From: Myxococcota bacterium
Lineage (GTDB): Bacteria > Myxococcota_A > UBA796 > CAJQPC01
Length of the DNA stretch: 55,016 nucleotides
Direction of reading: 5' to 3'
Assembly: GCA_036012755.1 (NCBI GenBank)
Contig: DASCPX010000072.1
Coordinates: forward strand, 1-55,016
Shown here piece after piece: positions 5,213-38,083 of this stretch. The position numbers were made by a program, and so were the translations under genes. Position 1 is the first letter of the stretch; each line of letters begins with the position of its first letter. A model generated the notes under the pieces. The model was not told where the DNA came from. It was given only the letters and a program-made list of their open reading frames with translations, and did no database searches.

Positions 5213-5232
5213 AATCTAACGCGTGGTCGATT
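5213..5232. promoter_or_regulatory. Second putative TetR operator (autoregulation), overlapping a -10-like TAGATT
   Basis: AATCTAACGCGTGGTCGATT, 15/20 identical to the 4551-4570 site. Confidence 0.5.
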
Positions 5233-6353
5233 CAGAAGGGGTGGTCGGACAGCACGTAGATCTGCACCAGCGGGCGGAGGTGGGGCTCGGCTTCGTACTC
5301 GTCCAGCCCGGCGCCGAGGTCCGCGCGGAAGACGATGAGGTCCTTCACGTTCAGGCGCAGGCCGGTGCCCGCGGTGACCTTTGGGGCGAAGGTGGGTTCA
5401 TCCCAGGTCCAGATCTCGATGGCGTCGACGAAGGGAGCCAGCATCCAGGCCGTCGAGGCCTCGCGGATCGTCGGGGCCCAGAAGGTCCAGCGGAGCTCTG
5501 GCATGAGCACGACCATCGAGTCCCCGCGGTAGCGCTCCTCTGGCAGGCCCTTGAGCATCCAGCGGCCCCCGACCACGCCCCGGCCCATGCCGCCGGCGTA
5601 GGCCTGGTCGAAGAAGGGCTCTCCCCAGCTCAGGTCGACCATCGCGTGGCCGGCCAGGGTGAGCCGGTCGGTGGGGGAGTGGTAGCCCCGCCAGCGCGCG
5701 TTGACGCCGAAGACGTCGAAGTCCGAGCCGAGCCAGGGCTGGGCGGTGCGCACCGAGGCATCCACCGCCTGACCCTGCCGGCTGTCGATCTCGCTGTCCC
5801 GCGCGTCCCAGACTCCGCCGACGGCGAGCCAGGCGTAGCGACCGCCCTCGAAGCCGAGGGGCCGATCCTCGAGGAGCAGGCTCTCGGGGTAGGGGGCCAC
5901 GACCTCTGTGCGGAGGTCGAACATCGCCAGCAGCTCGAGGTCCCCGACCAGCTCGTAGCGCAGCTTCGTGTTCAGCAGGTTGCGCTCTTGGCAGTAGAGG
6001 TAGAACTCCTCGTCGACCCCCTCGCGCCGGGGTGCCTCGGGCCCGATGCCCATGTACGGCGCTCGGCTCCAGCTGACGGTGCGCGCCTCGAGGGTCCAGC
6101 GGAAGCGAGAGCCGAGGAGCTTGGGCAGGTCGAAGCGGAGGTAGTGATTGCGATAGCCCCCGGTCGTCCAGTAGAGCTGCAGCTCCGTCGAAAACAGGTA
6201 GGGACGGTCCCCCCCGGCGTCCCCGAGGACCACCTGCCCGAAGCCCCCGTAGCCGAACAGCAGGTTCGAGTCGTAGCTCAAGAGCGGCACGGCGTAGGCC
6301 GCGACGTCGTCCCTCTCCACGGCCTGCGCCAGGGTGAGGAGGGTCAGGAGCAC
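5232..6353 (-). CDS. Omp85/BamA-TamA family outer-membrane beta-barrel protein without POTRA domains
   Basis: P.LSYDSN..FGYG start, WDARDSE, LKGLPEERYRG loop motif, GTGLRL..VFRADLG, C-terminal Phe. Confidence 0.7.
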   Translation of the reverse strand: MLLTLLTLAQAVERDDVAAYAVPLLSYDSNLLFGYGGFGQVVLGDAGGDRPYLFSTELQLYWTTGGYRNHYLRFDLPKLLGSRFRWTLEARTVSWSRAPYMGIGPEAPRREGVDEEFYLYCQERNLLNTKLRYELVGDLELLAMFDLRTEVVAPYPESLLLEDRPLGFEGGRYAWLAVGGVWDARDSEIDSRQGQAVDASVRTAQPWLGSDFDVFGVNARWRGYHSPTDRLTLAGHAMVDLSWGEPFFDQAYAGGMGRGVVGGRWMLKGLPEERYRGDSMVVLMPELRWTFWAPTIREASTAWMLAPFVDAIEIWTWDEPTFAPKVTAGTGLRLNVKDLIVFRADLGAGLDEYEAEPHLRPLVQIYVLSDHPF

Positions 6354-6366
6354 GCCGTGACCTCGG

Positions 6367-7089
6367 TCACCGAGTCGATCCGCAGAGCTCCGCCGTGCGG
6401 TCGTCCCAATCGCGCATGCCGTCGATGATCGTGTTCACGAGGCCGTCGTTCTCGGTCGTGAGCCCGACGTCCAGCTCGCGCCAGATGCCGTAGAGGTGGA
6501 CGAGCTCGGCCCCGTCCTCCAGCCAGACCTCTACCTGGTAGTCCTGGGTCCAGGACCAGTCGGAGCCCTCCTCGAACTCGGCGGGCGCGGGGAGCCAGGT
6601 GCGAGCCATGAGCACCTCGTCGGAGCGGCGCAGCCCCCCCAGCAGGCGCTCCGTGTAGGCCGTGTTGAGGTAGGAGCCCTCGATCACGACTTCCCAGGTC
6701 AGGGTCTCGCTGGCGCCAGAGGTGTAGTCGTCCAGGGACGAGGTGTACTCCCGGCTGTAGTCGTCGTAGTCGGCCTCTGGGTACTGCTCGTCCTGGTGCC
6801 TGGAGTACAGGATCGGCTCCAGGTCCTCGAGCGTGCACTCGTAGCGGTAGAGGATGAACCAGCCCCGCGCCTCGGCCGGGTCGACCTCGCCGAGCTCGAT
6901 GTGGTCGATCTCGGCCTCGGTCAAGCGGCTCGTCTCTCCGTCCTGGGGCTCCCGGGGGAGGTTCGCGGCGGCCTCTGCGATGCGCTCGGAGTCGGCCTCC
7001 TCGAACTCCGTCCAGAAGAGGTGGAGCAGTCCGTCGACCTCCTCCGGCGCGGGCTCGGGAGCGCAGGCGATGGCAGCCAGGGTCCACAT
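6367..7089 (-). CDS. Hypothetical acidic lipoprotein
   Basis: MWTLAAIAC lipobox; GC3-rich codon pattern; no recognised family. Confidence 0.7.
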   Translation of the reverse strand: MWTLAAIACAPEPAPEEVDGLLHLFWTEFEEADSERIAEAAANLPREPQDGETSRLTEAEIDHIELGEVDPAEARGWFILYRYECTLEDLEPILYSRHQDEQYPEADYDDYSREYTSSLDDYTSGASETLTWEVVIEGSYLNTAYTERLLGGLRRSDEVLMARTWLPAPAEFEEGSDWSWTQDYQVEVWLEDGAELVHLYGIWRELDVGLTTENDGLVNTIIDGMRDWDDRTAELCGSTR

Positions 7090-7110: not shown

Positions 7111-8457
7111 ATGCTGCTGCTACCCGTTGCCTTCGCTGCCGACATCGACTGGGAGGCGTCCACCGCCGAGACCGTCGAGCTCCTCTCCAGAACACTCCAG
7201 GCCGAGAGCGTGAACCCGCCGGGCAACGAGACCGAGGCGGCGCTGGTGCTGGCAGGGGTCCTCGACCAGGAAGGCATCCCCTGGGAGATCTGGGAGTCGG
7301 CCCCCGGTCGCGGGAGCCTCATCGCGCGGCTCGAGGGAGGGGACGAGCCTCCCCTCTGCCTGCTGTCCCACCTCGACGTCGTGCCCTTCGAGGCCGAGTC
7401 CTGGCCCGTGCCGCCGCTGTCCGGCAAGGTCGAGAACGGCAAGGTCTGGGGGCGCGGTGCCCTCGACATGAAGGGGATGGCGGTGGTCGAGGTGATGACG
7501 CTCGTGAACCTGAAGCGCCAGGGGGTGGAGCTGGACAGGGACATCGTGCTGCTCGCAGTCGCCGACGAAGAGGTCGACAACGCCGGTGTCCACACCGTGA
7601 TGGAGCGGTGGGACGAGATCGGCTGCTCCCACGTCATCAACGAGGGCGGAATGGGTGTCCAGGACATCCTCTTCGAGGGGCTGCACCTCTGGCCGGTCAG
7701 CGTCGGAGAGAAGGGGGTGCTCTGGGTGCGCATGACCGCTCATGGCGAGCCCGGCCACGGCTCGACCCCGCGCCCCGGCGAGGCCCCCGAGCGCCTGCTC
7801 GCCGCGCTGGAGCCGCTGTTGGCCTGGGACCCCGAGCTCACATGGCACCCGGCGATGGTGGAGCTCTTCGACAGCGTCGGCCAGACCCGCTCCGGTTTCG
7901 AGAGGTTCGTGCTCACCCACCCCGGCGTGATGCGGGTGATGCTGAAGAAGACCGTCAAGGCCAACGCGCTCACCCACGCCGTGCTCATCGACACCGTCCA
8001 CGTGACGGGCCTCGAGGGCGCGAACAAGCCCAACGTCGTGCCTGGAGAGGCCAGCGCGCTCTTGGACTGCCGCCTGTTGCCCGGCACCACGCCGGAGGCA
8101 CTCCTGGAGACTCTGGAGGCGCTCGTCGGAGACGACCAGGTCACCTTCGAGGTGCTCTCCGCCCAGTCCGCCGGGGGCTCCGAGTGGCACGGGGACCCGC
8201 TCTATGCAGCCCTGTCCGAGGCGATCCTCGAGGCCGACCCCCAGGCCACCGTGGCGCCCACGCTGTCGCCGGGCTTCACCGACAGCATCTACCTGCGCGA
8301 GCTCGGCGTCACCGCCTTCGGCATGATCCCCTTCCTGGTCACCCAGGAGGAGCTCGCGACGATGCACGGCAACGGGGAGTATGTCCGCGTCGAGGAGCTC
8401 GAGCGAGGGCTGAAGGTGCTGTACGGGACGATCGAGCGCTACGCTGCCTCCCAGTGA
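7111..8457 (+). CDS. M20/M25/M40 family metallopeptidase/amidohydrolase, secreted
   Basis: SHLDVVP, GRGALDMKG, ADEE, PGHGS, NVVP, GFTDS, MHGNGEY; start ATG 7111 (MLLLPVAFA-A). Confidence 0.9.
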   Translation: MLLLPVAFAADIDWEASTAETVELLSRTLQAESVNPPGNETEAALVLAGVLDQEGIPWEIWESAPGRGSLIARLEGGDEPPLCLLSHLDVVPFEAESWPVPPLSGKVENGKVWGRGALDMKGMAVVEVMTLVNLKRQGVELDRDIVLLAVADEEVDNAGVHTVMERWDEIGCSHVINEGGMGVQDILFEGLHLWPVSVGEKGVLWVRMTAHGEPGHGSTPRPGEAPERLLAALEPLLAWDPELTWHPAMVELFDSVGQTRSGFERFVLTHPGVMRVMLKKTVKANALTHAVLIDTVHVTGLEGANKPNVVPGEASALLDCRLLPGTTPEALLETLEALVGDDQVTFEVLSAQSAGGSEWHGDPLYAALSEAILEADPQATVAPTLSPGFTDSIYLRELGVTAFGMIPFLVTQEELATMHGNGEYVRVEELERGLKVLYGTIERYAASQ

Positions 8458-9266
8458 TCCTCTTCACCTTCGTCGCCTGTGCCGAGACGCTGAACGACTG
8501 CGAAGGCTGGGCTGCGCCAGAGGTCACGGGCCAGATCGCGGATGACGAGATCGACGAGATCAGCGGCATCGCCGTGAGCCGGCAGCACAGCGGGTGGCTC
8601 TGGGTGCACAACGACTCGGGGGACCAGGCCCGCGTCTTTGCGATGCGCACCGACGGTGACGAGGGCGGAGCCTTCCGGCTGGCGGGGGTCGACGTCAACG
8701 ACATCGAGGACATCGCGTTGACCTCCGACAACCGCCTCGTCATCGGCGACATCGGCAACAACAAGCGCAAGCGCTCCACCGTCCAGATCCTGCTCGCCGA
8801 CGAGCCAGACCCCGGCTCGGGTGGCGGCACGATCAGCGACGTCGAGGTCGTCACCCTGGCCTACCCGGGCGACCCTCACGACGCAGAGGCGCTCCTCGTC
8901 GATCAGGACGACACCATCTACATCCTGACCAAAGGCGCCACCTCGACCCTCTTTCGCGCCGATCTCGAGGCCGGCACGCTGTCCGAGCTCGCGACGATCG
9001 ATCCCAGCCGCTGGCGCCTGGATGATCGTACTCAGGTCACCGGCGCGGACGTCACGACCGACGGCAAGGTCCTGGTTCGCATGTACGACCACATCCTCGT
9101 GTGGAACCTCGACAGCGGAGGACTGCCCTCCACATTCGACGGGACCGCTTGTCGAGTGGCCCCAGCGGCCGAGTCACAGGGAGAGTCCCTCGGCGCCTCC
9201 ACCAGGGGTTTCTACACGGCGAGCGAAGGAGAGGGGGCCGCCGTTCACGAGTATTCGCGTCGATGA
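8454..9266 (+). CDS. Beta-propeller lipoprotein (SdiA-regulated/phytase-like type), function unknown
   Basis: EISGIAVS, WVHNDSGD, DIEDIA, GDIGNN, DAEAL, QGES; GTG 8454 coupled to upstream stop; VILFTFVAC. Confidence 0.7.
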   Translation: MILFTFVACAETLNDCEGWAAPEVTGQIADDEIDEISGIAVSRQHSGWLWVHNDSGDQARVFAMRTDGDEGGAFRLAGVDVNDIEDIALTSDNRLVIGDIGNNKRKRSTVQILLADEPDPGSGGGTISDVEVVTLAYPGDPHDAEALLVDQDDTIYILTKGATSTLFRADLEAGTLSELATIDPSRWRLDDRTQVTGADVTTDGKVLVRMYDHILVWNLDSGGLPSTFDGTACRVAPAAESQGESLGASTRGFYTASEGEGAAVHEYSRR

Positions 9267-9303: not shown

Positions 9304-10347
9304 GTGGCCTCTTGCTGTCTCCCTCCTGTCACCGTGCCGTCACACCTCGCTGAACGCAGATTTCGCTCCGTCGCGGGCAGCCTGGCCGGTGTTGCACTGG
9401 TGGGCCTGGCCCTGGTGTCCTGGACGCCGCGGGACCTCGAGCTGCGCGGGGTGGTCGAGCCCGGCGCGCGCTTCTCGCTGAGCTCGGCGCCTGGAGAGCT
9501 GCGCTGGACGCTCTCGGAGCATGGTCAGGCGGAAGGCCTCGCGGTCGTCAACGAGGGCACGCTGCAGCTGGAGCGCGGAGAGCAGCTGGAGCTCCGCGTC
9601 CACCGCGGCGCCACCGTCACAGAGGGTGAGTCTGTCGCCGTGATCGACTCGGTGCTGGTCACCCGGCTCATCACCGAGCTGGAGGCGGAGCGGGCCGAGA
9701 TCTCCGCCCAGGTGAACCTGCTGCAGGCCGGGGGCCGTCTGGAGACCATCCGGCGCGCCCAGGCCGATGTCCAGGTCGCAGAAGCCCAGCTCGCCGCCGC
9801 CGCCCTCGCCAGCGACCGCCTGCGGCCTGCCGACGGTGTCATCGCCCGCGCCGAGATCGAGGACCTCGCCGCCGTCGTGGCGGTCCGTGAGCGTGAGCTG
9901 AGCTTCTCCCAGGCCGGCCTCGCCGAAGCGCGGCTGCCCGCGCGTCCGGAAGAGGTCGCCACCCTGGTCGCCCGCCTCTCGGGCGTCGAGTCCCGCATCG
10001 CAGAGGCCAACCGCCGCCAGGCCGCCCTCACCGTCGTGAGTCCCATCACCGGCAGCGTCGGCGCGGGGCGGGACAACGAGCTCCTCGCGGTCGTCTCCGC
10101 CACGGAGCGCTTCGCCCGCTTCCCGGTGCCCGAGAGCGATCGCGAGCGGATCCACATCGGTGACGACGTGGACTTCGCGTCGCCCTCGACGGAGGGTGCG
10201 ATGGAAGGCCAGGTGGTCGACATAGCCGACGTGGCCGTTCCGCTGGGGACAGAGAGTGTCTTCTGGGTCGCGGTCCAGCTCGACGACGCGGGCGCCTTGC
10301 CGCCGGGAGCGACCGGCACGGCCCGCTTCCACCCGGACGACAGTTAG
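9304..10347 (+). CDS. HlyD-family membrane fusion/periplasmic adaptor protein
   Basis: N-terminal TM, lipoyl half-motifs V..GATVTEGE and VVSPITGSV, long coiled coil, LPPGATG; start uncertain. Confidence 0.75.
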   Translation: MASCCLPPVTVPSHLAERRFRSVAGSLAGVALVGLALVSWTPRDLELRGVVEPGARFSLSSAPGELRWTLSEHGQAEGLAVVNEGTLQLERGEQLELRVHRGATVTEGESVAVIDSVLVTRLITELEAERAEISAQVNLLQAGGRLETIRRAQADVQVAEAQLAAAALASDRLRPADGVIARAEIEDLAAVVAVRERELSFSQAGLAEARLPARPEEVATLVARLSGVESRIAEANRRQAALTVVSPITGSVGAGRDNELLAVVSATERFARFPVPESDRERIHIGDDVDFASPSTEGAMEGQVVDIADVAVPLGTESVFWVAVQLDDAGALPPGATGTARFHPDDS

Positions 10348-10353
10348 GTCCTG

Positions 10354-11097
10354 ATGAGCGAGGGGCGCTACGAGCTCAAGTACGTCTTGCACGAGACCGA
10401 GACCCCGCGGCTCCTGGCCGCGATCGCAGGACACGTCGAGCCCGACCGGCACGCCTCGGCGCTGCCTTCGGGCGGCCTCGGCTACATCGTGAGCTCGGTG
10501 TACCTCGACACTCTCCAGTTCGAGGGCTACGCCGAGCGCCTTCGCATGGAGCGCATCCGGAACCGCGTGCGGGTGCGGACATACGGCAGGGCGGGGGACG
10601 GCGCCCCGGTCTTCCTCGAGTGCAAGCGCAAGCTCGCCGACCAGGTCATCAAGCACCGCACGCGCATGGGCGACGCGGACAGCTACCAGCTGGGCCCCGA
10701 GCGCTCGTGGGACCAGATCGACGATCGCCGCGTGCAGCGCTTCGCGCGGGCAGTACAGGGGATGAAGGCGATGTGCGTCGTGCGCTACGAGCGGGAGATC
10801 TTCACAGCGGACACTGCCCGGCTGACCGTCGACCGCAACGTCCGCGCCGGCCCCGTCGACGACACGCGGCAGCTCTACGCTCCGGTGCCGCTGGACCTCA
10901 TCCCAGAGGACTGGTGCGTGATCGAGCTCAAGTTCAACGGCCAGATGCCAGGCTGGATGCGCCGGGCCAGCCATGAGCTGCAGCTCTACAGCGAGCCGGT
11001 GTCCAAGTTCGCCCTCGGCATGGTGATGTCCCGCCGTGCGGACCACCCTGGAGAGCTCCGCCAGCTGACCCCCTCGACGATCCTGAGGGCGGCGTGA
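10354..11097 (+). CDS. VTC-domain (polyphosphate polymerase-like) protein
   Basis: RYELKY, SSVYLDT, RNRVRVRTYG, FLECKRK, VRYERE, RLTVDRNV, VIELKF, VSKF. Confidence 0.88.
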   Translation: MSEGRYELKYVLHETETPRLLAAIAGHVEPDRHASALPSGGLGYIVSSVYLDTLQFEGYAERLRMERIRNRVRVRTYGRAGDGAPVFLECKRKLADQVIKHRTRMGDADSYQLGPERSWDQIDDRRVQRFARAVQGMKAMCVVRYEREIFTADTARLTVDRNVRAGPVDDTRQLYAPVPLDLIPEDWCVIELKFNGQMPGWMRRASHELQLYSEPVSKFALGMVMSRRADHPGELRQLTPSTILRAA

Positions 11098-11789
11098 ACG
11101 AACTCCAGATCCAGCAGCTCCTCGGCCAGATCCCGCCCATCTCCGGGCAGGAGGCCTTGCGGAACCTGCTGTTGGCCCTCGGCCTGGGCCTCACGGTGGC
11201 GGTGCTGCACCGCATCACGAACTTCCGGTCGAAGCCCTCGCCGGCGCTGCTGAGCGCTCTCGCGCTCTTGCCTCCGATCGGCTCGATGGTGATGATGGTG
11301 ATCGGAAACAGCCTGGCCCGGGCATTCAGCCTGGTGGGTGCGCTGGCCATCATCCGCTTCCGGACACGGCTGCGCAGCCCCTGGGACATCAGTTTTGTCT
11401 TCCTCTCCCTCACCCTGGGCGTCGCCTGCGGTGTCGGTGCCCACCAGGTGGCCCTCATCGGCATCGTCGTCGTCGGCCTTGGCATCCTGGTCATCGGGGC
11501 GCTCCCGGGCACCCGTCCGACCCCAGAAGCCTACGTGCTCCGGTGCGAGGTCGCGGCCCACCAGGTCGGCGAACGTGAACTGGCGCCGGTGATGATCCCA
11601 CACATCGAGGAGCAGCACCTCGACCAGGCCCAGACCCGGCGCTTTGGCGAGGCCCTGAGCCTCACCTGGAGAGTGGTCTTGAAGCCAGACGCGACGCTCG
11701 AGGCTCTGATCCGCGAGTTGGCAGCCGTAGAGGGAGTCGAGAGAGTCACTGTCGTATCCAACTTCGATGCTGTGACTGAGCCCAGGTGA
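11094..11789 (+). CDS. DUF4956 family membrane protein
   Basis: IGNSLARAFSLVGALAIIRFRT motif, several TMs, C-terminal soluble domain; GTGA-coupled to VTC gene. Confidence 0.88.
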   Translation: MNELQIQQLLGQIPPISGQEALRNLLLALGLGLTVAVLHRITNFRSKPSPALLSALALLPPIGSMVMMVIGNSLARAFSLVGALAIIRFRTRLRSPWDISFVFLSLTLGVACGVGAHQVALIGIVVVGLGILVIGALPGTRPTPEAYVLRCEVAAHQVGERELAPVMIPHIEEQHLDQAQTRRFGEALSLTWRVVLKPDATLEALIRELAAVEGVERVTVVSNFDAVTEPR

Positions 11790-11826
11790 TGGTAATAAGG
11801 ATCTTGAACTTTTCGGGAGGCGGCCG

Positions 11827-13611
11827 GTGATCACTCTGCTCCTGGCATGCGGAAATATGGGTAGCGTCGTCATAGATGGTCCCCCGGATGAAGTCCCCGA
11901 GGCTGAGCGGGACGACGACGAGGACGGCTTCGTCGCGGAAGAGGACTGCGACGACGAGGATCCGCTCTCTTTCCCCGGCGGCGACGAGGGCACCGCTCCG
12001 GACGGCGCTGACAACGACTGCGACGGCGTCGTAGACGACTACGAGGTGGGCTGTGGGGGCGTCACCGACGTGATCATGGACGCCGTGGATCTAGTAGACG
12101 ACGGCATGACGATCCTGGTCTGTCCCGGTCACTACCCAGAGGATCTCGTGCTCGACGGGCGCGAGCTGACCATCCTGTCCATGGAAGGGGCAGGCGAGAC
12201 CTACATCGACGGCAGCGGCGACACCTCGGTCGTGAGCCTCACCGGCGCCGACATCACGCTGACGGGCTTCACCATCTCCGGCGGCCTGGCAGAAAACGGC
12301 GGCGGCGTCTACGCCATGGACTCCGAGCTGACCCTGTCCGAGAACGTCATCGAGGACAACGTGGCCACCCAGTATGGCGGCGGCGTCTACACCCAGAGCA
12401 CTGGCGCGGACATCCTCGACAACACGGTCGAGGACAACGACGCCTTCGAGGGAGGCGGGCTCTACGTCTGGGGCCAGGTGACCCTCCAGGGCAACGAGAT
12501 CCTCGAGAACCACTGCGTCTCGCTGCAGGAGGGCGAGGCCTACCACGGGGCCGACGGCGGCGGCGGCGGTCTCTTCGCGCGAGGAAAGGTCGACATCCTC
12601 GACAACGTCATCGCGCGCAATGTCAGCGAGGTCAACGGGGCGGGGGTCTACACCCTCGACGCCAGCGGCACCTTCTCGGGCAACCTGGTCAAGGCCAACG
12701 AGACCTACGAGGACGGCAGCGGTGTCTACGCCAACTACACCAGCGAGACCTACGACAACAACGAGTTCATCGACAACTTCGCCCACGACGACGCGGGCGG
12801 GCTGCGCATCTACGTCGGCTCCGCCGAGATCACGAACAACTACTTCGAGGGCAACGGCTGCAACGACGACGGCGGCGGACTCAAGCTGAGCCACGCCCGG
12901 AGCACTGTCTCCGGCAACACCTTCGTCGACAACTACGCCGGCGACTCCGGCGGCGCGCTGGAGCTCGACAACGACGTCAGCCCCGTGAGCGACTGCGTCT
13001 TCGAGGACAACCGGGCCGCGCGAGGGGCGGCGATCAACGCCAAGGAGCTCTTCAGCGCCACTACGCTGACGGACCTCACCTTCATCGACAACGAAGCGAG
13101 CTCCTCCGGCGGCGCCATCTACATGTACGACAACCCCTACACGTTGACAGCCAAGCGCATCGTGGTCGAACGCGGCGACGCCCCCTTCGGCGCGGCCATC
13201 GCGGCCTCCGCGGCCAGCGTCGTCGTGAGGAACGCGCTCATCACAGGCCAGGACGGGGACGCCATCGAGCTCACCGGCTCCACCGGCAGCTTCGGCAACA
13301 TCGTCATCACCGACTCCACGGGCACCGGCATCGTCAGCGACGGGGCCTACACCCTCTACAACTCCATCCTGGTGAACAACGAGATCGGCGTCGAGGGCCC
13401 CGCGACGGTCAGCTACAGCACCTTCTGGGACAACGACATCCTCGGCGACAACGCTGACGGCACTGGCGTGATCTACGAGGATCCGGACTTCACGGCGAGT
13501 TACGAACTCGAGAGCTCCAGCCCCTGCATCGACGCGGGGACCCCGAGCGTGAACGACCCCGACGGCTCACGCAGTGACATGGGCTACTACGGAGGCCCCG
13601 ATGCTCCTTGA
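11827..13611 (+). CDS. Right-handed parallel beta-helix lipoprotein with MopE-like Cys/Asp motif
   Basis: DCDDEDP..PG..DGADNDCDG, many N.A..GGG(V/L)Y repeats, SPCIDAG..DPDGSRSDMGYYGG; GGAGG before GTG. Confidence 0.82.
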   Translation: MITLLLACGNMGSVVIDGPPDEVPEAERDDDEDGFVAEEDCDDEDPLSFPGGDEGTAPDGADNDCDGVVDDYEVGCGGVTDVIMDAVDLVDDGMTILVCPGHYPEDLVLDGRELTILSMEGAGETYIDGSGDTSVVSLTGADITLTGFTISGGLAENGGGVYAMDSELTLSENVIEDNVATQYGGGVYTQSTGADILDNTVEDNDAFEGGGLYVWGQVTLQGNEILENHCVSLQEGEAYHGADGGGGGLFARGKVDILDNVIARNVSEVNGAGVYTLDASGTFSGNLVKANETYEDGSGVYANYTSETYDNNEFIDNFAHDDAGGLRIYVGSAEITNNYFEGNGCNDDGGGLKLSHARSTVSGNTFVDNYAGDSGGALELDNDVSPVSDCVFEDNRAARGAAINAKELFSATTLTDLTFIDNEASSSGGAIYMYDNPYTLTAKRIVVERGDAPFGAAIAASAASVVVRNALITGQDGDAIELTGSTGSFGNIVITDSTGTGIVSDGAYTLYNSILVNNEIGVEGPATVSYSTFWDNDILGDNADGTGVIYEDPDFTASYELESSSPCIDAGTPSVNDPDGSRSDMGYYGGPDAP

Positions 13612-14197
13612 GGTGCTCTTCCTCCTCGCTTGCAATGGTACGACCGTAGGCGAGGAGGAGGGCGACGACCCCGCCGAGTGCACCGACGGCGAGGACAACG
13701 ACGGCGACGGCGAGATCGACTGTGACGACCTCGGCTGCGCGGCGGTCTGCGAGGGCGCGGACTACGGCTCCGTCCTCATCAACGAGTTCATGGCCAGCAA
13801 CCAGACCACCGTCGACGCAGAGGACGGCGGCTTCTACGACTGGTTCGAGCTCTACAACCCCGGCAGCGAGACCGTGAACCTCGGCGGCTGGACGGTCACG
13901 GACGACTTCTCCGTCCCCGACAAGTACGAGCTGTCGGACAACCTGGAGTTGGATCCCGGTGACTTCCTCCTCATGTTCGCCTCGGACAACGAGGAGGAGC
14001 TCGGCGACACCCACGTCGGCTTCCACATGAACAAGAGCGGAGAGGCCCTGGCGATCTACCGGCCCGACGGCTCCGCCAGCGACGAGCTCGACTACGAGGC
14101 GCAGGCCGCAGATCTCTCGGCGGCGCGGATCCCGGACGGCAGCAGCACCTGGGAGATCACCGGCGACGCCACACCTGGCGAGAGCAACGACGAATGA
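13601..14197 (+). CDS. Lamin-tail-domain (LTD) lipoprotein
   Basis: VLINEFMASN, DWFELYNP, VNLGGWTVTDD, SAARIPDG, TPGESN; start ATG 13601. Confidence 0.85.
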   Translation: MLLEVLFLLACNGTTVGEEEGDDPAECTDGEDNDGDGEIDCDDLGCAAVCEGADYGSVLINEFMASNQTTVDAEDGGFYDWFELYNPGSETVNLGGWTVTDDFSVPDKYELSDNLELDPGDFLLMFASDNEEELGDTHVGFHMNKSGEALAIYRPDGSASDELDYEAQAADLSAARIPDGSSTWEITGDATPGESNDE

Positions 14198-15411
14198 CAC
14201 TCCTTCTCCTCGCGTGCACGGGCGGGAGCCTGGTGGTCGATGGTCCCGTGACCGACGACTCGGCGATCGGCGACAGCTCGCGGCCGGTGGACACCAGCCA
14301 CGACATCGAGGAGGTCCCTGGTGTCGGAGAGCTCAGCGACGTGCTCTTCAACGACGAGGTGCTGCCGGAGTTCGACGTCCTGTTGTCGGACGAGGCCTTC
14401 TCCAGCCTGGCGAGCGACCCCTACAACTGGGTCGAGGGCGGCATCGTCTTCGACGGCGTGACCTACGAGGGCATCGGCGTCAGGGTGAAGGGCGAGAACA
14501 GCTACCTGCCGATCTCGCAGAAGGCTTCGCTGAAGCTGAAGTTCGACAAGTACGACCCCGACATGCGCTTCTTGAAGCTCGAGGAGCTCACGCTCAACAA
14601 CATGTCGAACGACTACTCGATGATGCACGAGCGGCTGAGCTACCGGCAGTTCCGTGAGTCCGGGCTGCCCGCCCCTCGGGCGAACCACGCGCTGGTGTCG
14701 ATCAACGGCGAGCACGTCGGCCTCTACACCGTCCTCGAGACCGTCGACCGCGACTTCATCAAGCGCTGGTACGACAACACCGAAGGCCCCATGTTCGAGG
14801 TCTGGGATGTCGACTTCAAGGACTACTACATCGACAGCTTCCAGCTCGAGTTCGGCGAGGACGACCGCACCCAGCTCCAAGGGGTCGCGGACACGCTGGA
14901 AGACAGCGGCGATGACGCCTACGAGGCCGCCGCCGAGTACCTGGACTGGGAGCAGTTCACGAAGTGGTGGGCCAACGGGATCATCGTCGGCCAGTACGAC
15001 GGCTACCCCTACGCAGACCCCGGGGACGACTGCCACGTCTTCGTGAACCAGGACAACCTCGGCCCCGCCGGAGGACCCCGCCTGGAGTGGATCCCCCACG
15101 GCATGGACGAGACCTACTACTACCCGACGGGCGTCGCGGTGCTCACGCAGGTCAACGGCATCGTCGCCAAGCGCTGCACGAACGTGGCCCAGTGCCAGGA
15201 CATGGTCGTCGAACAGATGAACGTCGGGCTGGACCGCCAGGACGAGATCGGCACGCTGGAGTACTTCGACATGGTCGAGGCGCAGATCAAGGACCACGTC
15301 ACGGCCGACACGAACAAGAACTACACCGACGAGTACGTCTGGTACTACCAGGACGCCATGCGCTCCTTCATCGCGAGCCGACGGAGTGACTTGTCCCGCT
15401 GGACGGACTGA
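14194..15411 (+). CDS. CotH-family kinase lipoprotein 1
   Basis: IGVRVKGENS, KASLKLKF, LTLNN, MHERLSY, PAPRAN, GLYTVLE, WIPHGMD. Confidence 0.88.
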   Translation: MTLLLLACTGGSLVVDGPVTDDSAIGDSSRPVDTSHDIEEVPGVGELSDVLFNDEVLPEFDVLLSDEAFSSLASDPYNWVEGGIVFDGVTYEGIGVRVKGENSYLPISQKASLKLKFDKYDPDMRFLKLEELTLNNMSNDYSMMHERLSYRQFRESGLPAPRANHALVSINGEHVGLYTVLETVDRDFIKRWYDNTEGPMFEVWDVDFKDYYIDSFQLEFGEDDRTQLQGVADTLEDSGDDAYEAAAEYLDWEQFTKWWANGIIVGQYDGYPYADPGDDCHVFVNQDNLGPAGGPRLEWIPHGMDETYYYPTGVAVLTQVNGIVAKRCTNVAQCQDMVVEQMNVGLDRQDEIGTLEYFDMVEAQIKDHVTADTNKNYTDEYVWYYQDAMRSFIASRRSDLSRWTD

Positions 15412-16892
15412 TGTTCCTCGGGCTCGTCGCGTGCGGGCCGGGCAGCATCGCGATCGGGCCCCTGGCTGACACGGGCCAGGCCCCAGTGGGGTGTGGTCTC
15501 GAGCTCGACGACGCCGACATTCACGGCGTCGAGGACGAGCGCCTGTCCTTCGACGCGCGCTGCGCCAGCGGGGCCGAGCTCTCGCTGTCGGGACCGGGGT
15601 CGTGGGAAGACGACGAGTGGACCTGGCGCCCGGACCTCGACGAGGCGGGAGAGTACGAGGTCCTGCTGTCGTGGGGGCTCGAGAGCGCGGTGGTCCGCGT
15701 CTTCGTCGCCGACGCCTGGGACGAATCGGACAACGAGCCGGTCGACCCCTTCGAGTACCAGGAGGAGTTCGGGCTCCCTGTCGTCCACATCTTCCCTGGC
15801 GGCAGCGTCGGCGAGGACTACGTCTCCGCCAGCGTCGTCTTCGAGGGCCGCGAGTACACCGGGGCTCGGGTCAAGAAGCGAGGCGCCGCCAGCCTCTACT
15901 ACCCCAAGGTCGGCTACACGCTCGACTTCGACTCCGAGGACCAGCTGGAGTTGTCAGACCGCGGAATGGGGGACAAGGCCCACCTGGTCTTGATCTCGAC
16001 CTTCGACGACAACAGCTACGTGCGGCAGAACCTCGCCTACGGGCTGTGGGAGGACATCGCCGAGCACTTCGGACAGGCGCGGCTGGTCGTCCGCACCTTC
16101 CACACCATCGTCTACATGGGTGGCTCCTACATCGGGCTGTACGTGGCCTCTGACCACGTCGACGACGAGTTCCTCCAGCAGATGGGGCTGGACCGGGACA
16201 GCCCGCTGTTCAAGGCCGTGGACCACAACGCGAACTTCTACGGCACCGACTACTACGGCAACCCCAAGCCCTCCTGGCACTCCGGCTACGAGCTCAAGGA
16301 GGGGGACAGCTGGGAGACCCTCGATGCCCTGGTGCAGTGGTCTGCCGTTGCCAGCGACGAGGAGCTGGTCGCCCAGGCGGACGACTGGCTGTCCTCGACG
16401 GAGTTCGCGGACTGGTTCATCTTCGTGCACTTCACGGAGTCCGGGGACTCCGGGGGCAAGAACAGCTACCTCGCCTGGGACCTGACGACCCAGCGCATGC
16501 GCTACGCCCCCTGGGACTTCAACCACAGCTGGGGCCAGGACTGGCGCACGCTGCGAGTGAGCTCCAGCACCTACAACGACTTCACCTGGACCAACCGGGT
16601 CTTCAAGGCCCAGCAAGCGGTCGACGGCGCGGCGCTCTGGGCGCGCTGGTGGAGCCTGGTCGACGACGGGCCGCTGCGCGAGGACAGGCTCATGGCCGAG
16701 CTCGATGGCATGTACTCGGACATCGATCCCTCGGCGCGGCGTGACTGGGATCGCTGGGGAGACGCCTACCGGAGCTACAGTGGGTGGGCCTCGAGTCGCG
16801 ACGGCTGGACCGACTACGAAGGCGAACGCCGCTACCTGGAGGACTGGATCTCCGACCGCTGCGAGTGGGCGCGAGAGGACCACGACCGATGA
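15411..16892 (+). CDS. CotH-family kinase lipoprotein 2 with N-terminal Ig-like segment
   Basis: KKRGAAS, YPKVGY, FDDNSYVRQ, YIGLY, GKNSYL, PWDFNHSWG. Confidence 0.88.
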   Translation: MFLGLVACGPGSIAIGPLADTGQAPVGCGLELDDADIHGVEDERLSFDARCASGAELSLSGPGSWEDDEWTWRPDLDEAGEYEVLLSWGLESAVVRVFVADAWDESDNEPVDPFEYQEEFGLPVVHIFPGGSVGEDYVSASVVFEGREYTGARVKKRGAASLYYPKVGYTLDFDSEDQLELSDRGMGDKAHLVLISTFDDNSYVRQNLAYGLWEDIAEHFGQARLVVRTFHTIVYMGGSYIGLYVASDHVDDEFLQQMGLDRDSPLFKAVDHNANFYGTDYYGNPKPSWHSGYELKEGDSWETLDALVQWSAVASDEELVAQADDWLSSTEFADWFIFVHFTESGDSGGKNSYLAWDLTTQRMRYAPWDFNHSWGQDWRTLRVSSSTYNDFTWTNRVFKAQQAVDGAALWARWWSLVDDGPLREDRLMAELDGMYSDIDPSARRDWDRWGDAYRSYSGWASSRDGWTDYEGERRYLEDWISDRCEWAREDHDR

Positions 16893-18089
16893 TGTGGCTC
16901 CTGGCCTGCACCGGCTCCGTGACCCTTCCAGGGGGCCAGGGCGAGTATGTCGTCGGAGGACGACACAGGTGACACCGGTCCCTTCGAGGAGCCCGAGACC
17001 GGCCCCCCCGAGCCCTTCGGCCTGGCGCGGTCCACGAGGTCGAGCTCGAGCTGGACGAGGAGGCCTGGGAGTCTCTCTCGGTCGCCCCCTACACCTACGT
17101 GCCGGCCTCCATCCACTTCGACGGCGAGCCCTACGAGGTCAGCGTCCGCCTCAAGGGCCGCTACGGCAGCTACCGGCAGCTCTCGGCCAAGGCGGGCTTC
17201 AACGGTCGACATCAACCGCTACGACCCGGACCAGACCATCCACGACCTGGAGCGGCTGAACCTGAACAACATGGTGCAGGACAGCGCCCAGGTGCACGAC
17301 TTCATGGCCTACACGGTCTACCGGGCGATGGGCGTGCCCTGTCCCTGGGTCGGCTACGCGTGGGTGAGCGTCAACGGCGAGGTCTTCGGGCTCTACGCGC
17401 TGGTCGAGGCCTACGACGATGTGTTCGTCGGGGAACGCTGGGAGGACGGCAGCGGCAACCTCTACGACGGGGACTACTGGCTGGCCGAGGACTGGAGCTA
17501 CTACGTGCTGCTCGACTTCTACGCCTCGCGCCACGAGTACTTCCAGCTGGACGAGGGCACTGACGTCGGGTGGGTGGACATCGCCGGAGTCACGGCTGTG
17601 CTGGACGAGACCGCCGGCACCCAGGACGTCGACGAGGCCCTCGACGAGGTCGTCGTGCTCGACGAGGTGATCTCGATGTGGGCCAGCGAGGTCTGGCTCG
17701 GCCACTACGACGGCTACTTCTACAACACGAACAACTACCGCCTCTACTTCGACCCGGCGGACGGTCGCGCGACCATGATGCCCTGGGATCAGGACTGGGC
17801 CTTCTACCGGGACACGCCGATCACGAGCCCCTCCGGTCGCATCGGCGCTACCTGCCTCGGCGACATCTCCTGCCGCCAGCGCTACGGGGACGCGATCGAC
17901 GAGGTCTGCTCGGTCACGGGCGGGCTCGGTCTGGAGCGCACCCTCGACGAGGTCACGGACCTCGTGAACCCCTACGTACGCGACGATCCTCGCCGGGAGA
18001 TCAGCTTCCCCGACGCCGAGTACTACCAGGCGGACCTGTTGGACTGGATCTCGCGGCGCTGCGGAGAGCTCGAAGCGGCCGGGCTGTAG
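16889..18089 (+). pseudogene. CotH-family kinase lipoprotein 3, with three apparent frameshifts (pseudogene or assembly error)
   Basis: MMWLLAC start at 16889; frame changes near 16953, 17025 and 17203 are needed to join DTGDTG, VRLKGRYGSYR and VDIN..LNLNNM..NNYRLY..PWDQD. Confidence 0.7.
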
Positions 18090-19586: not shown

Positions 19587-21509
19587 CTACTGGCGGTAGG
19601 CTGCGCAGCCCTCCGTCCAGCCCTGGCGGGCGCGCTCGTCGAGGTCCTCTTCGTCAGAGCAGCCCACCCAGCGGGCCCAGCCGCGGCCGAGGCCATCCCA
19701 GGTTCCCTGCTCGGTGATGCATGGGCCGACGTGGTCCTCGAAGGTGCCGACGTCGTCGCGGAAGATGGCCGGGGGGAGCTCGCCCTGGAGGCTCGTCTCG
19801 GCGATCCAGTCCTGGCCTCGCGCCGAGCAGGCCCCGGTGAAGACACGGGGATCCGCCAACAGGGTGCCCTCCGACTCGAAGAGCGCCCGCCAGGCGCGGC
19901 GACCCACGGCCTCGCCGAAGTCCTGGTCGAAGCCGTCGGGCATGGCGTCCAAGAGCGGGACGATGTCCGCGTGGACCTCGCCGTGCTCGCCGATCAGCGC
20001 CCGGGCGAAGCCGTTGGCGAGGTGCCTTCGGCTCTCCGTGTCCGACACGAAGCGGGAGGCGGTGTGGACGAGGACGACCACGTCCTCTGGACGCTCCGAC
20101 AGAGCCAGGCCGATCCGCCGTCCGGTCTCCGAGAGGTGGTCGTAGCGGCACTCGGGGAAGCGGTCTTCGTGGTCGGTCAGGAACTGGAAGGCGGCGCCGA
20201 GATCCTGGGGCCGTGACTGCTTGTCCCGGTTGCGCTGCGGTGGATCACCGCTGGGCACGGTCTGGTCCGTGCGACCGTCCGGTGCGTAGACCCGCACGTC
20301 CAGGAAGCCAGCCCTCAGCGGTCCCCACTTGCCCACGCGCAGGCCGATCCCGAGGCCAGCCGCCGCGACGACTCCGACGAGCGCGGCTCGACCGAACCAC
20401 CGCGGCGCCGTGCACGCCATCGCCGCGCCGAGGAACAGCAAGGGGATGAGGGGGGCCCGGTAGCGGAGGTGGAAGGTCGCGAACGCGATGTCCGAGGGGT
20501 TGTCGTCCCAGAGGTCGTAGCGCAGGGCGTAGGCCACCAGCAGCGCGGCCAGCGCCACCGCGGGGAACCAGGAGACCACTGGCTGATCGCGCCACCTGCG
20601 GATGACCAGGCCCATGCCCGCCAGCGCCGCCACCCACAAGACGAACCAGTACAGCGAGGGCAGGACGCCGAGGTCGCCGTACTCGACGACCAGGCGGCCC
20701 GCCATCGGGTTCACCTCCAGGGGCCAGAGGCCGTCGCGGAAGAAGGGGCCCCAGAGCCAGTCGGCCAGTCCGTCCAGGGGCGCGGGGGTGAACATGGAGA
20801 ACCAGTCGACGGCCTCTCCCTTGGCATAGGGGCGCGACTCGTGGACCCAGAACCAGGGGTAGGCGCCGAGGGCTCCGCCGAGGGCGAACAGGGGCGCGCC
20901 TCGCCACCACAACAGCACAGCGGCCACGGCGAGGGCGGGCACGGCGTGGACCGAGATGTGGGCGAACCAGAGCCCGAGTCCGGTCACCACCCCGCTGGCG
21001 ATGATGCAGAGGGCCTGCACCCATCGCCTCCGTCCGGCCCCGGCGGCCAACAGCGCCAGGGCGCCGAGGGTGAAGGCGGCGGACTCGGCGTGGTTGCCCC
21101 AGCCCGTGTGGATGAGGTCACGGTAGAAGCCCGGGGCGCCCAGCATGAGCAGGCACCAGGCGACCCCGGCCTTCCACGAGATGCGGTTGGCGACGAAAGC
21201 CCCGAGCGCCGTCACCAGCACGTGGAAGCCAAAGGGGATCAGCTTCCAGACCATCACCGTCGGCCCGAGCTCCGAGAACAGGGGCGCCGCCATCAGCGAC
21301 TCACCGGTGCAGCCGCCGCAGAAGGTGCGGTACTGCAGCGCCCACCATCGATCGAGGTGGCCGCATGCGAACTGGGCGCCGGCCCGGGCGTTGAAGCGCT
21401 CCTCCCAGTGGACGCGGGCCCAGGGGCCGAAGAGCAGGTCGATTCCGCTGGCGAGTGCCTCCAGCGCGACCAGCGCCCACACGAGCAGGCGCTGCCTCGA
21501 GCTAGTCAC
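19587..21509 (-). CDS. Polytopic membrane protein, GT-C/PMT-like glycosyltransferase candidate
   Basis: TM1 followed by acidic HWEE motif, about 10 further hydrophobic segments, soluble C-terminal domain. Confidence 0.55.
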   Translation of the reverse strand: MTSSRQRLLVWALVALEALASGIDLLFGPWARVHWEERFNARAGAQFACGHLDRWWALQYRTFCGGCTGESLMAAPLFSELGPTVMVWKLIPFGFHVLVTALGAFVANRISWKAGVAWCLLMLGAPGFYRDLIHTGWGNHAESAAFTLGALALLAAGAGRRRWVQALCIIASGVVTGLGLWFAHISVHAVPALAVAAVLLWWRGAPLFALGGALGAYPWFWVHESRPYAKGEAVDWFSMFTPAPLDGLADWLWGPFFRDGLWPLEVNPMAGRLVVEYGDLGVLPSLYWFVLWVAALAGMGLVIRRWRDQPVVSWFPAVALAALLVAYALRYDLWDDNPSDIAFATFHLRYRAPLIPLLFLGAAMACTAPRWFGRAALVGVVAAAGLGIGLRVGKWGPLRAGFLDVRVYAPDGRTDQTVPSGDPPQRNRDKQSRPQDLGAAFQFLTDHEDRFPECRYDHLSETGRRIGLALSERPEDVVVLVHTASRFVSDTESRRHLANGFARALIGEHGEVHADIVPLLDAMPDGFDQDFGEAVGRRAWRALFESEGTLLADPRVFTGACSARGQDWIAETSLQGELPPAIFRDDVGTFEDHVGPCITEQGTWDGLGRGWARWVGCSDEEDLDERARQGWTEGCAAYRQ

Positions 21510-22605
21510 TCGTCAGGTTGTCCGTCCCCGCCTTGATGTCGCCCTCGCCCCACTCCTTGTCCCGGAAGCGCTTCGCCGCAGCCTTCCTCTCCCGCTTCTC
21601 CTCCTGGAGCTCGACGAGGTGGTGGTGGGTCGTGAAGTAGGGCAGCGTGGCTCCCCGCATGGCCTCGACGGACTCGAAGCCGTGCTGCTCCATGAAGGCC
21701 TCGAGCCCCTCGGCCAACTCGCTCACCATGCCGAAGCCCTGGAGCATCGGGCCGGTGCAGGCCTGGACCGTGTTCGCGCCGACGAGGATGTGCTCGATGG
21801 CGTCCCTGCTGCAGGTCACCCCCCCGATGCCGCTGAGCGAGAAGCCAGGCAGATCCTGGGCGATCTCTGCGACCATCCGCAGGGCGATGGGCTTGACCGC
21901 CAGGTAGCTGTAGCCGCCGAAGGTGCTGTGGCCCTCGACCGTCGGCTGGGGCCGCAGGGTCTTCAGGTTGATGCCGATGCAGGCCAGGATCGTGTTGATC
22001 GCGGAGACCCCGGAGGCGCCGCCGGCCTTCGCCGCCCGCGCGGGTAGACGGATGTCGGTGATGTTGGGTGTCATCTTGGCCCAGACCGGGACCGAGACTG
22101 CGTCCACCACCCAGCTGGTCACCTCCTGCACCATCGGCGGGTCCTGGCCCATGGCCGCGCCCATGCCCCGCTCCGGGTGGCCGTGGGGGCAGCTGAAGTT
22201 CAGCTCGAGGGCGTCGCAGCCGGACTCGACGCAGCGCCCCGCCAGCTCCTGCCAGCGGTCCTTGGAATAGCTCTCCATGATCGAGCCGATGAGGATGCCC
22301 TCTGGGTGGGTGTCCTTCGTCTCGCGGTACCAGTCCTCCCAGTCCTCGAAGGGGGCGTCGCTGATGAGCTCGATGTTCTGGAAGCCGACGTTCTCCTTGC
22401 CGGCGGTGCGCAGCTTGCCGTAGCGAGGCTGCACGTTGATGACCTCTGTGTCGGTGAGGCTGGTGGTCTTGGCGACGACCCCGCCCCAGCCCGCGGCGAA
22501 GGCCTTGCACATGATCTTCGCGTTTGTGCTGGGGGGACCGGAGCCGATGACGAAGGGATTCGTGAACTGGAGGCCATCGACGTCGACGGCGAGCCTGGAA
22601 CTCAT
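21502..22605 (-). CDS. preA: Dihydropyrimidine dehydrogenase FMN subunit (PreA/PYD1-like), no C-terminal Fe-S domain
   Basis: NPFVIGSGPP, NIELIS, ELNFSCPHG, WAKMTPNITDI, AINT, GGYS..AVKPIAL, SGIGG. Confidence 0.88.
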   Translation of the reverse strand: MSSRLAVDVDGLQFTNPFVIGSGPPSTNAKIMCKAFAAGWGGVVAKTTSLTDTEVINVQPRYGKLRTAGKENVGFQNIELISDAPFEDWEDWYRETKDTHPEGILIGSIMESYSKDRWQELAGRCVESGCDALELNFSCPHGHPERGMGAAMGQDPPMVQEVTSWVVDAVSVPVWAKMTPNITDIRLPARAAKAGGASGVSAINTILACIGINLKTLRPQPTVEGHSTFGGYSYLAVKPIALRMVAEIAQDLPGFSLSGIGGVTCSRDAIEHILVGANTVQACTGPMLQGFGMVSELAEGLEAFMEQHGFESVEAMRGATLPYFTTHHHLVELQEEKRERKAAAKRFRDKEWGEGDIKAGTDNLTSD

Positions 22606-22619
22606 GCGAGCCTCGGAGC

Positions 22620-23795
22620 GTGAAGAAACGACAAGGTACTACGAGCCGCCTGTTTCGAGACTGCTGGGTCGGAGGCAGGCGGGCGGACCTCCTGGTCGAG
22701 GACGGCGTGATCGCTGCGATCGGCGCCATGGAGGGGCCCGCCGAGCTCGAAGGCGGCACGATCTGTCCTCCCCTCGCCGAGCCCCACGTGCACCTCGACG
22801 CCGCTCTCTTGGCGCGGGATGCGCCGAACCACAGCGGCACCCTGGAGGAGGGCATCGCCAACTGGGCGCGTCTCCGCGACGGCCTCGGAAAGGAGGACGT
22901 GAAGCGCCGCGCCCGCGAGACCATCGGCTGGTACCGCCGCTTTGGCTGCAGGCGAATCCGGACTCACGCCGACACCGGCTGCCTGGACAACGTCGAGGCC
23001 CTCGTCGAGCTCCGCGAGGAGGTCGCCAAAGAAGGCACCACCTTGCAGATCGTGGCCTTCCCCCAGGAGGGCATCCTGACCGGACAGCGCCGCGAGGAGC
23101 AGTGGCGAGAGGCGGTGGAGCTCGGCTGCGATGCCATAGGTGCCATCCCCCACTTCGAGCCGAGTCGGCCAGAGGGAGACCGCTCGCTGCGCCTGGCCAT
23201 CGAGCTCGCGGCCGAGCACGGCCTGGCCCTCGACGTGCACTGCGACGAGCGCGACTCCGGCGAGTTCCGCCACCTGGCGACCCTCTGCGCGCTGGCCAGG
23301 GAGCACCCAGGGGTCCACGTCGTCGCCGGACACTGCACGGCCATGCACTGCTGGCCCGACGAGCTCGCGGCAGAGGTAATCGAGGCGGTGGTCAGCTCCG
23401 GAGTGCTCGTCGTCACCAACCCGCTGGACAACATCGTGCTGCAGGGCAGGGGAGGCTACCCGCGCATCAGGGGGCACACCCGGGTCGACGAGCTCTGGGC
23501 CGCCGGCGCTTCTGTCGGCATCGGCCACGACTCGGTCATGGACCCCTGGTACGGCCTGGGCACAGCGAACCTGCTCGACGCCGCCTACGTGCTCGTCCAC
23601 TACGCCCACCTGAGCAGCCGCGAGCAGATGGTGCGCGCTTTTGGCGCCCTGTCCCACGAGAACCACGCCCCCTTCGGCTCGGTCCCCCGGCTCGAGGTCG
23701 GCGCCCCCGCGGAGTTCCTCTTCTTTCCGGCTCGAGATCCCCTCGAGGTCCTGCGGCTTCGACCACTACCGGTCATCATCGGCCCCGGCGCGTGA
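22620..23795 (+). CDS. codA: Cytosine deaminase (amidohydrolase fold)
   Basis: EPHVHLD, IRTHAD, QIVAFPQEG, GAIPHFE, DVHCDE, NPLDNIVLQGR, GHDSVMDPWY; start uncertain. Confidence 0.85.
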   Translation: MKKRQGTTSRLFRDCWVGGRRADLLVEDGVIAAIGAMEGPAELEGGTICPPLAEPHVHLDAALLARDAPNHSGTLEEGIANWARLRDGLGKEDVKRRARETIGWYRRFGCRRIRTHADTGCLDNVEALVELREEVAKEGTTLQIVAFPQEGILTGQRREEQWREAVELGCDAIGAIPHFEPSRPEGDRSLRLAIELAAEHGLALDVHCDERDSGEFRHLATLCALAREHPGVHVVAGHCTAMHCWPDELAAEVIEAVVSSGVLVVTNPLDNIVLQGRGGYPRIRGHTRVDELWAAGASVGIGHDSVMDPWYGLGTANLLDAAYVLVHYAHLSSREQMVRAFGALSHENHAPFGSVPRLEVGAPAEFLFFPARDPLEVLRLRPLPVIIGPGA

Positions 23796-38081: not shown

Positions 38082-38083
38082 CG

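Follow-up and report, generated by a model that had tools for sequence, protein, structure and literature searches.

A conserved operon linking a predicted polyphosphate polymerase, a DUF4956 membrane protein and an efflux-type adaptor to exported CotH proteins in a Myxococcota bacterium

In the yeast VTC complex (Vtc4/Vtc3/Vtc1; PDB 3G3Q, 8I6V, 7YTJ), the synthesis of polyphosphate (polyP) is coupled to its translocation, and transit of the chain needs basic residues of the pore helices (PMC9911596). Among bacteria, a trio of genes encoding CotH, a polyphosphate polymerase and a DUF4956 protein is found beside Gram-positive pel operons, with no function given (10.1101/768473), VTC-domain and CotH genes occur in the NELoc-2 locus of Clostridium perfringens (PMC2879425), and a study of Streptococcus intermedius found the trio only in pel operons (10.1101/2024.04.20.589940). 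CotH itself has been described as a spore-coat Ser/Thr kinase of Bacillus subtilis (PDB 5JD9), whose activity needs both D228 and D251 (PMC7821199). Here, we describe an operon from a Myxococcota bacterium (assembly GCA_036012755.1, contig DASCPX010000072.1, the 55,016-nucleotide stretch analysed being referred to as the window) in which a VTC enzyme, a DUF4956 protein and a periplasmic adaptor are encoded in one run with CotH genes. We favor the reading, to which we assign a probability of about 0.45, that this module couples polyP synthesis to polyP export and that CotH kinases of the cell envelope are served by, or depend on, the product.

Eight co-oriented genes were confirmed on the plus strand over positions 9304-18089, encoding the adaptor, VTC, DUF4956, a beta-helix protein, a lamin-tail-domain (LTD) protein and three CotH proteins, and Pfam recognised VTC (E 7e-27), DUF4956 (4e-12), a NosD-type beta-helix, LTD and three CotH matches among the window proteins. 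An earlier note on this DNA had described the genes as co-oriented and mostly overlapping, with no ABC or RND pump for the adaptor, and both statements hold: five of the seven junctions from the adaptor to cotH3 overlap (by 4, 11, 4, 1 and 4 nt) and two are gapped (6 and 37 nt), and the neighbourhood of the operon showed no ABC, RND or TolC gene. The operon is similar in G+C content to the remainder of the window, a promoter/terminator scan gave signal only at chance level, and no RNA dataset among the listed runs carried the stretch. The beta-propeller gene just upstream lies outside the stretch covered by the earlier note and is a module member, 29 of 80 DUF4956 loci (below) having a homologue no more than 9 kb away. 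The features are as follows.

8454-9266, plus strand: phytase-like beta-propeller lipoprotein, accessory of the module (PF13449, E 6e-5, below cut-off)
9304-10347 (true start likely 9304-9334), plus strand: periplasmic adaptor (membrane fusion protein), with profile and fold matches to MacA/EmrA
10354-11097, plus strand: stand-alone Vtc4-type triphosphate tunnel enzyme, predicted polyphosphate polymerase (PF09359, Vtc4 match)
11094-11789, plus strand: DUF4956 inner-membrane protein, predicted membrane subunit of an exporter (PF16316)
11827-13611, plus strand: acidic right-handed beta-helix lipoprotein, accessory (Pfam NosD, Chlam_PMP and a MopE-type motif)
13601-14197, plus strand: LTD lipoprotein, accessory (PF00932)
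14194-15411, plus strand: CotH1 lipoprotein, intact frame, variant or pseudokinase (PF08757, E 3e-26; 5JD9 match; lipobox)
15411-16892, plus strand: CotH2 lipoprotein, intact frame, both catalytic Asp equivalents (PF08757, E 9e-39; 5JD9 match; lipobox)
16889-18089, plus strand: cotH3, probable pseudogene with frameshifts (homologues match two different frames)

The locus thus shares with the Gram-positive pel-locus trio and C. perfringens NELoc-2 the same three families in one gene run and a secreted CotH; it differs from the pel-locus trio in its diderm host, in that no pel genes were seen near the operon, and in the added adaptor, LTD, beta-helix and propeller genes.

The module recurs widely. 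Among the best 80 of 398 DUF4956 loci from GTDB genomes, a set biased by a query taken from adaptor-type loci, by many close kin and by profiles trained on some of its members, VTC was found in 74, the adaptor in 70, LTD in 45, CotH in 38, the propeller in 29 and a TolC-type gene in 4. The adaptor stood beside DUF4956 in 24 of the 32 distant loci, and half of the ten adaptor-less loci are cut by contig ends, the other five being non-truncated. A less biased set, picked on VTC alone and comprising all 38 VTC loci in 40 relatives of the order, gave DUF4956 in 35 loci, 32 of which have either an adaptor (23, of upstream or downstream type) or a DUF2490 gene (9) adjacent; DUF2490 we take to be an outer-membrane barrel. 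Finally, 7 of 20 hand-picked loci of the phylum are ordered DUF4956-adaptor-TolC-VTC, 3 carry a porin O/P gene, and in several, which have no adaptor, a divergent CotH gene stands between DUF4956 and VTC (L163-L166). The adaptor-VTC-DUF4956 core is conserved in this synteny survey, of the kind that the earlier note had suggested, and the doubt raised there, that the HlyD-type gene might not be conserved with the module, is answered by its presence in seven of every eight DUF4956 loci of the larger set. The module is real, conserved and functionally uncharacterised, and the locus is one instance of a widespread cassette.

CotH genes co-occur with the module across genomes as well. In a survey of 121 genomes of the phylum, each at least 90% complete and with CotH counted at E<=1e-15, VTC and CotH occur together in 49 genomes, VTC only in 8, CotH only in 14 and neither in 50, and VTC or DUF4956 is present in 46 of the 48 genomes with at least two CotH matches vs. 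14 of the 73 others. VTC and DUF4956 are found together in 51 of the 60 genomes having either; six of the nine exceptions have VTC only, and a divergent subfamily may have escaped the DUF4956 profile there. Outside the phylum, VTC, DUF4956 and CotH were all found in the same three of 14 control genomes (Bacteroides thetaiotaomicron, Corynebacterium glutamicum and Methanosarcina acetivorans), B. subtilis, whose CotH belongs to the spore coat, being the sole control with CotH but without VTC/DUF4956, and a type IX secretion system sorting tail is present on 4 of 10 CotH proteins scanned from module loci in other phyla. Phylum co-occurrence and the related loci together bear out the earlier note's claim that the VTC/DUF4956/CotH association recurs in bacteria. 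Its further remark that the association is functionally uncharacterised stands insofar as we found no function in print, although the trio had already been described beside Gram-positive pel operons; in the literature available to us (subscription journals mostly not covered), we found no description of a module with an adaptor, of export or of CotH fed by polyP.

The VTC protein (247 amino acids) consists of the VTC domain alone, and its gene is single-copy in the genome. A profile built from 31 homologues finds Vtc4 as its best PDB match (E 1e-22), ahead of the non-catalytic Vtc2/Vtc3. The triphosphate/Mn site of Vtc4 is formed by K200, R264, R266, K281, Y359, R361, E426, S457 and K458, the last being the residue lost in Vtc2/3 (10.1101/2023.01.27.525886), and all nine are kept here as K9, R73, R75, K91, Y145, R147, E191, S217 and K218, respectively, each conserved in 73-80 of 80 homologues. 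Hydrolases of the triphosphate tunnel metalloenzyme family require an acidic second metal site that is absent from Vtc4 (PMC4641920); two positions that are Glu in these hydrolases, mapped by motif rather than by superposition, are Arg5 and Lys193 here, as in Vtc4 (R196 and K428). Because the Vtc4 residue set is complete and two acidic positions of the hydrolases are basic, although a third (Glu7) is kept, the residue pattern makes the protein a likely polyphosphate polymerase. The possibility, allowed for in the earlier note, that it is merely a triphosphatase thus finds the polymerase residues and Arg5/Lys193 against it and Glu7 in its favor. Compared with the yeast complex, the catalytic tunnel domain, the full set of triphosphate/Mn residues and a membrane partner bearing conserved basic residues in a helix are shared, whereas the SPX domain and the membrane helices of the eukaryotic catalytic subunit are missing, the partner is a DUF4956 protein (five helices plus an ACT domain) and a periplasmic adaptor is added. 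No VTC domain fused to a longer protein was seen among 8000 candidates, which is weak evidence.

The DUF4956 protein, also encoded once in the genome, was modelled by AlphaFold with a predicted local distance difference test (pLDDT) score of 91 as five predicted helices (residues 18-136) followed by a C-terminal ACT-like domain. Of 150 homologues, all have Arg88 and Arg90 and 125 have Arg76; these three residues bracket an Ala/Gly-rich helix. By analogy, this conserved Arg helix might play a role similar to that of the basic pore residues in yeast, and an oligomer of DUF4956 could form a pore lined by the helix. Fold matches were confined to the ACT part and included MgtC C-terminal domains (Z 8-10). 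The eukaryotic complex has a 15-helix channel built of Vtc1-type subunits with three helices each. No match to the Vtc1/3/4 helices was seen in whole-protein sequence and fold searches, whose lists were filled by the ACT domain, no solved structure matched the membrane part, and the Atlas gave only DUF4956 clusters and two unnamed matches under 0.8. The MgtC family is similar in combining a membrane domain with an ACT-like C-terminal domain, and relatives of the DUF4956 protein give weak PF02308 (MgtC) matches, below cut-off; however, the protein of the window has no such match and its gene context is different. The adaptor stays directly upstream of DUF4956 in four loci without VTC (L100, L111, L122 and L145), which points to DUF4956 as the adaptor's partner.

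The first gene of the operon encodes a true MacA/EmrA-type adaptor. The protein alone has no HlyD Pfam match, and its NCBIfam HlyD/RND_mfp matches are below cut-off; the family profile, however, matches MacA/EmrA (E 4e-13), as does the AlphaFold model in Foldseek (pLDDT 92; E about 1e-13), with one N-terminal membrane helix, a four-helix hairpin, and alpha-hairpin, lipoyl and beta-barrel domains all present. The earlier note's identification of an HlyD-like gene is upheld by these profile and fold matches. MacA/EmrA-type adaptors and TolC function in export. With MacAB-TolC, EmrAB-TolC and HlyBD-TolC, the locus shares the adaptor fold, and a minority of related loci have a TolC-type gene next to them (4 of the 80, 2 of 35 and 7 of the 20 hand-picked, in all 13 loci, in several DUF4956 subclades). 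It differs in lacking an ABC/MFS/RND pump, in having DUF4956 at the inner-membrane position, in the absence of TolC from the locus and in a degenerate hairpin tip. Likewise, no cognate ABC, RND or MFS pump was found in the related loci scanned, except for unlinked ABC ATPases. Porin O/P-family genes adjoin six loci, and the type of conduit tracks DUF4956 clades in a quick tree search. Docking to a TolC-type channel, either dedicated or borrowed, is probable for the adaptors of most relatives. The residues R-x3-L-x6-S at the hairpin tip, which we take to be the TolC-docking motif, are whole in 37 of 63 family members, while only R172 is kept here and in both same-genus orthologues; delivery in this genus may therefore end in the periplasm, or it may use a borrowed channel. 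A dedicated TolC was sought in this genome and rejected, all five TolC-type genes being adjacent to RND-like pumps on other contigs.

The genome encodes, besides its one VTC and one DUF4956, 26 CotH matches amounting to about 25 genes, and a lipobox-like signal is carried by 21 of 25 CotH proteins, compared to 908 of 5711 proteins genome-wide. The module probably serves these roughly 25 genes; the earlier note had it feeding three, and while CotH genes do stand in the run, the scope appears to be wider. Its description of three exported CotH kinases at the locus does not hold, since cotH3 is frameshifted, leaving two intact genes, and CotH1 lacks one presumed catalytic Asp. Mapping from the 23-residue spacing of D228 and D251 in 5JD9, CotH2 keeps both Asp equivalents, whereas CotH1 keeps the N-lobe lysines/basic residues and Asp269 and has Gly303 in place of the Asp251 equivalent (the first Asp of W-D-x-D). 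Relative to the Bacillus kinase, the kinase domain, the N-lobe basic residues and the Asp228 equivalent are common, while the lipoprotein signal, the expansion to about 25 paralogues and the absence of the Asp251 equivalent from part of them set the proteins of this genome apart from it. As for cotH3, its lipoprotein signal starts at 16889 and runs into a stop near 16970. The frame that matches homologues switches near 17205, and the acidic linker is encoded in the other frame, so that some three frame changes result, placed near 16945-16970 and at about 17035 and 17205; the open reading frame 16947-18089, taken as cotH3 in the earlier note, has no signal peptide and no in-frame N-lobe R-x-K-G motif. 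Sequencing error was rejected as the source of these frameshifts, and the lesion taken as real, because no indel is seen in the contigs of three runs, X1 and X6 over the whole stretch and X4 over 16509-17744, with the qualification that X1 and X6 may be source data of the assembly; the best-matching runs are marine metagenomes, and the host is probably marine. Judged on these reading frames, cotH3 is probably a pseudogene. A further CotH match (G000:C160:69121-69903) has an internal TGA stop, and decay of cotH paralogues is therefore not limited to cotH3.

We also tried Asp-Ser/Thr motifs in lipoprotein tethers as a marker of CotH substrates. They are enriched after the lipobox in this genome (29.7 vs. 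17.9 expected per 1000), and this candidate was rejected since the enrichment is equal in G006, which has neither module nor CotH (ratio 1.71; 1.05 in G138, on only 17 proteins). The motif is possibly an O-glycosylation sequon of the kind found in Bacteroidota. A lipoprotein gene of the window (3704-4549) has five tandem DSDPQ repeats.

The favored reading, coupled synthesis and export of polyP for envelope CotH kinases, builds on the gene content, the conservation of the core, the Vtc4 residues, the adaptor fold, the CotH lipoprotein signals and the co-occurrence across the phylum. Its steps, as we infer them, would be that VTC polymerises ATP-derived phosphate into polyP at the inner membrane, that DUF4956 passes the chain across this membrane, that the adaptor guides it through or into the periplasm towards the exported CotH proteins, and that these kinases, having no steady source of ATP, depend on polyP for phosphate, either as a direct donor or through local regeneration of ATP. 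The parts differ in strength: given synthesis, export is rather likely to follow, whereas polyP as the direct phosphate donor of CotH is a possibility that we regard as doubtful, and the same tentative standing applies to the most specific version, in which DUF4956 would be the inner-membrane channel of an undescribed class of VTC-powered, envelope-spanning exporters and the exported CotH proteins polyphosphate-dependent protein kinases. Several results weigh against the favored reading. Eight of the 57 VTC genomes have no CotH at the threshold used (two of the eight have a divergent CotH in the locus), no VTC/DUF4956 was found in G133 (94% complete, 12 CotH) or G119 (3 CotH), and the phylum genomes, as kin, are non-independent samples whose Fisher values therefore overstate the association. 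DUF4956, a porin and CotH occur without VTC in G115 and in three genomes of genus g3. Glu7 of the hydrolase ExExK motif is kept (in 79 of 80 homologues), where Vtc4 has Thr198; the docking tip of the adaptor looks degenerate and the genome offers no TolC of its own to the module; and 9 of the 24 complete-enough CotH paralogues lack the Asp251 equivalent, 15 keeping it. B. subtilis CotH uses ATP in vitro (PMC7821199), and for S. intermedius SIR_1592-1594 the authors expect polyP to be cytoplasmic and report that deletions of the trio leave Pel and aggregation largely unchanged (10.1101/2024.04.20.589940).

Part of these observations would suit a role of exported polyP as a surface polyanion, cation buffer or matrix component, with CotH proteins as co-functional surface-assembly factors that have another ATP source or act by binding. 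The paralogues without one catalytic Asp equivalent, the decayed cotH3, the genomes with many CotH but no module, and the position of the trio next to polysaccharide synthase genes in Gram-positives agree with such a role, which we consider unlikely given that CotH number closely tracks the presence of the module and that several loci have a divergent CotH gene inserted between DUF4956 and VTC. The VTC-less loci of four genomes, the PPK1 found in the two g3 genomes tested and the retained Glu7 bring in another explanation, together with an exported lipoprotein with a PPDK nucleotide-binding domain that adjoins two loci: DUF4956 and the conduit might export a small phosphoryl donor (ATP, pyrophosphate, tripolyphosphate or a nucleoside polyphosphate), VTC being an optional maker or regulator and not a long-chain polymerase. 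With the Vtc4 catalytic set complete, the Lys458 equivalent included, and VTC and DUF4956 together in most genomes that have either, this is rather unlikely. It is improbable, in our view, that VTC is a cytoplasmic storage polymerase with DUF4956 as an MgtC-like anchor or regulator and no export. Neither PPK1 nor PPK2 was found in this 96% complete genome, and VTC could therefore serve storage; the ppk block of the same-genus genome G002 (L176 11034-14463) gave no tblastn match here, which reflects a true loss or an assembly gap. The ACT domain and MgtC resemblance of DUF4956, the cytoplasmic polyP proposed for S. intermedius and the five non-truncated loci without an adaptor point the same way, while in most diderm loci the immediate neighbours include a gene for an adaptor, TolC or an outer-membrane barrel, and PPK1 coexists with the module in G002, B. 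thetaiotaomicron and M. acetivorans. Finally, porin O/P genes and phytase-like propellers adjoin some loci, as might be expected if flow were inward and the module scavenged external polyphosphate or pyrophosphate with VTC reversed or hydrolytic; this we regard as very improbable, the adaptor type and TolC being devices of export and the acidic patch of the hydrolases being mostly replaced by basic residues in VTC.

The accessory lipoproteins of the operon deserve mention as well. A beta-helix gene recurs close to the module in relatives and in other loci CotH carries fused beta-helix domains; LTD, which lies within 9 kb of DUF4956 in the 45 loci counted above, is fused to CotH in other phyla; and propeller-like domains are fused to the adaptor in five other loci. 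These fusions make it likely that all three accessory lipoproteins are partners with a role in positioning or in substrate binding. The five adaptors with a C-terminal propeller-like domain (L157, L159, L160, L161 and L162; DUF6910/DUF6929/phytase-like in the three scanned) belong to DUF4956-adaptor-TolC-VTC operons; the window propeller is related to them only weakly by hhalign (E 0.004, probability 8%), BLAST and HMM searches being negative. The flanking amidase and M20 peptidase were rejected as parts of the module, having no homologue in 38 related loci.

Variants of the cassette were observed in related loci. The VTC-less arrangement of the three g3 genomes and G115 (L152 7175-8971, L153 7789-9600, L154 and L174 3201-4759) comprises LTD and CotH genes and a divergent DUF4956 beside a porin O/P-like barrel gene. 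In eight distant loci (L118, L119, L121, L123, L128, L133, L134 and L138), the adaptor or VTC is directly preceded by a small phospholipase D-like gene with a single domain (H-x-K motif), most of the proteins having an N-terminal hydrophobic segment; it could be a phosphotransferase or polyP-processing partner. The PPDK-domain lipoprotein adjoins DUF2490-type modules (L061 6799-8766; L172 5747-7810 and 7869-9158, the latter locus also with DUF2252) and is possibly an extracytoplasmic ATP-regenerating enzyme. Elsewhere in the window, an Omp85-family barrel gene and the gene of an unassigned lipoprotein (5232-7089, minus strand) are oriented divergently to the M20 peptidase gene on the upstream side of the module; positions 31467-48381 hold a cluster in which genes for four sulfatase-family lipoproteins stand with those for two sulfotransferases and an arylsulfotransferase-like protein, along with three SPFH/Band 7 genes, of which one is fused to an EamA transporter; and a gene set resembling reductive pyrimidine degradation, named from translations only, occupies 21502-29429 and 50066-53942 (dehydrogenase, hydantoinase-like, nitrilase-like, aminotransferase, aldehyde dehydrogenase and nucleobase permease).

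In conclusion, we would class the module as a variant of the VTC-type coupling between synthesis and translocation, one that stands outside both the eukaryotic complex and the known tripartite pumps. If the favored reading is true, it would represent a bacterial counterpart of eukaryotic VTC-coupled polyphosphate translocation with an apparently unrelated membrane subunit, and DUF4956 would be a new inner-membrane partner for efflux-type adaptors. It would also explain the phosphate source of exported CotH proteins and, more broadly, bacterial phosphorylation outside the cytoplasm, with one polyP feed for about 25 surface kinases. Further, the module could be a source of extracellular polyphosphate in seawater.

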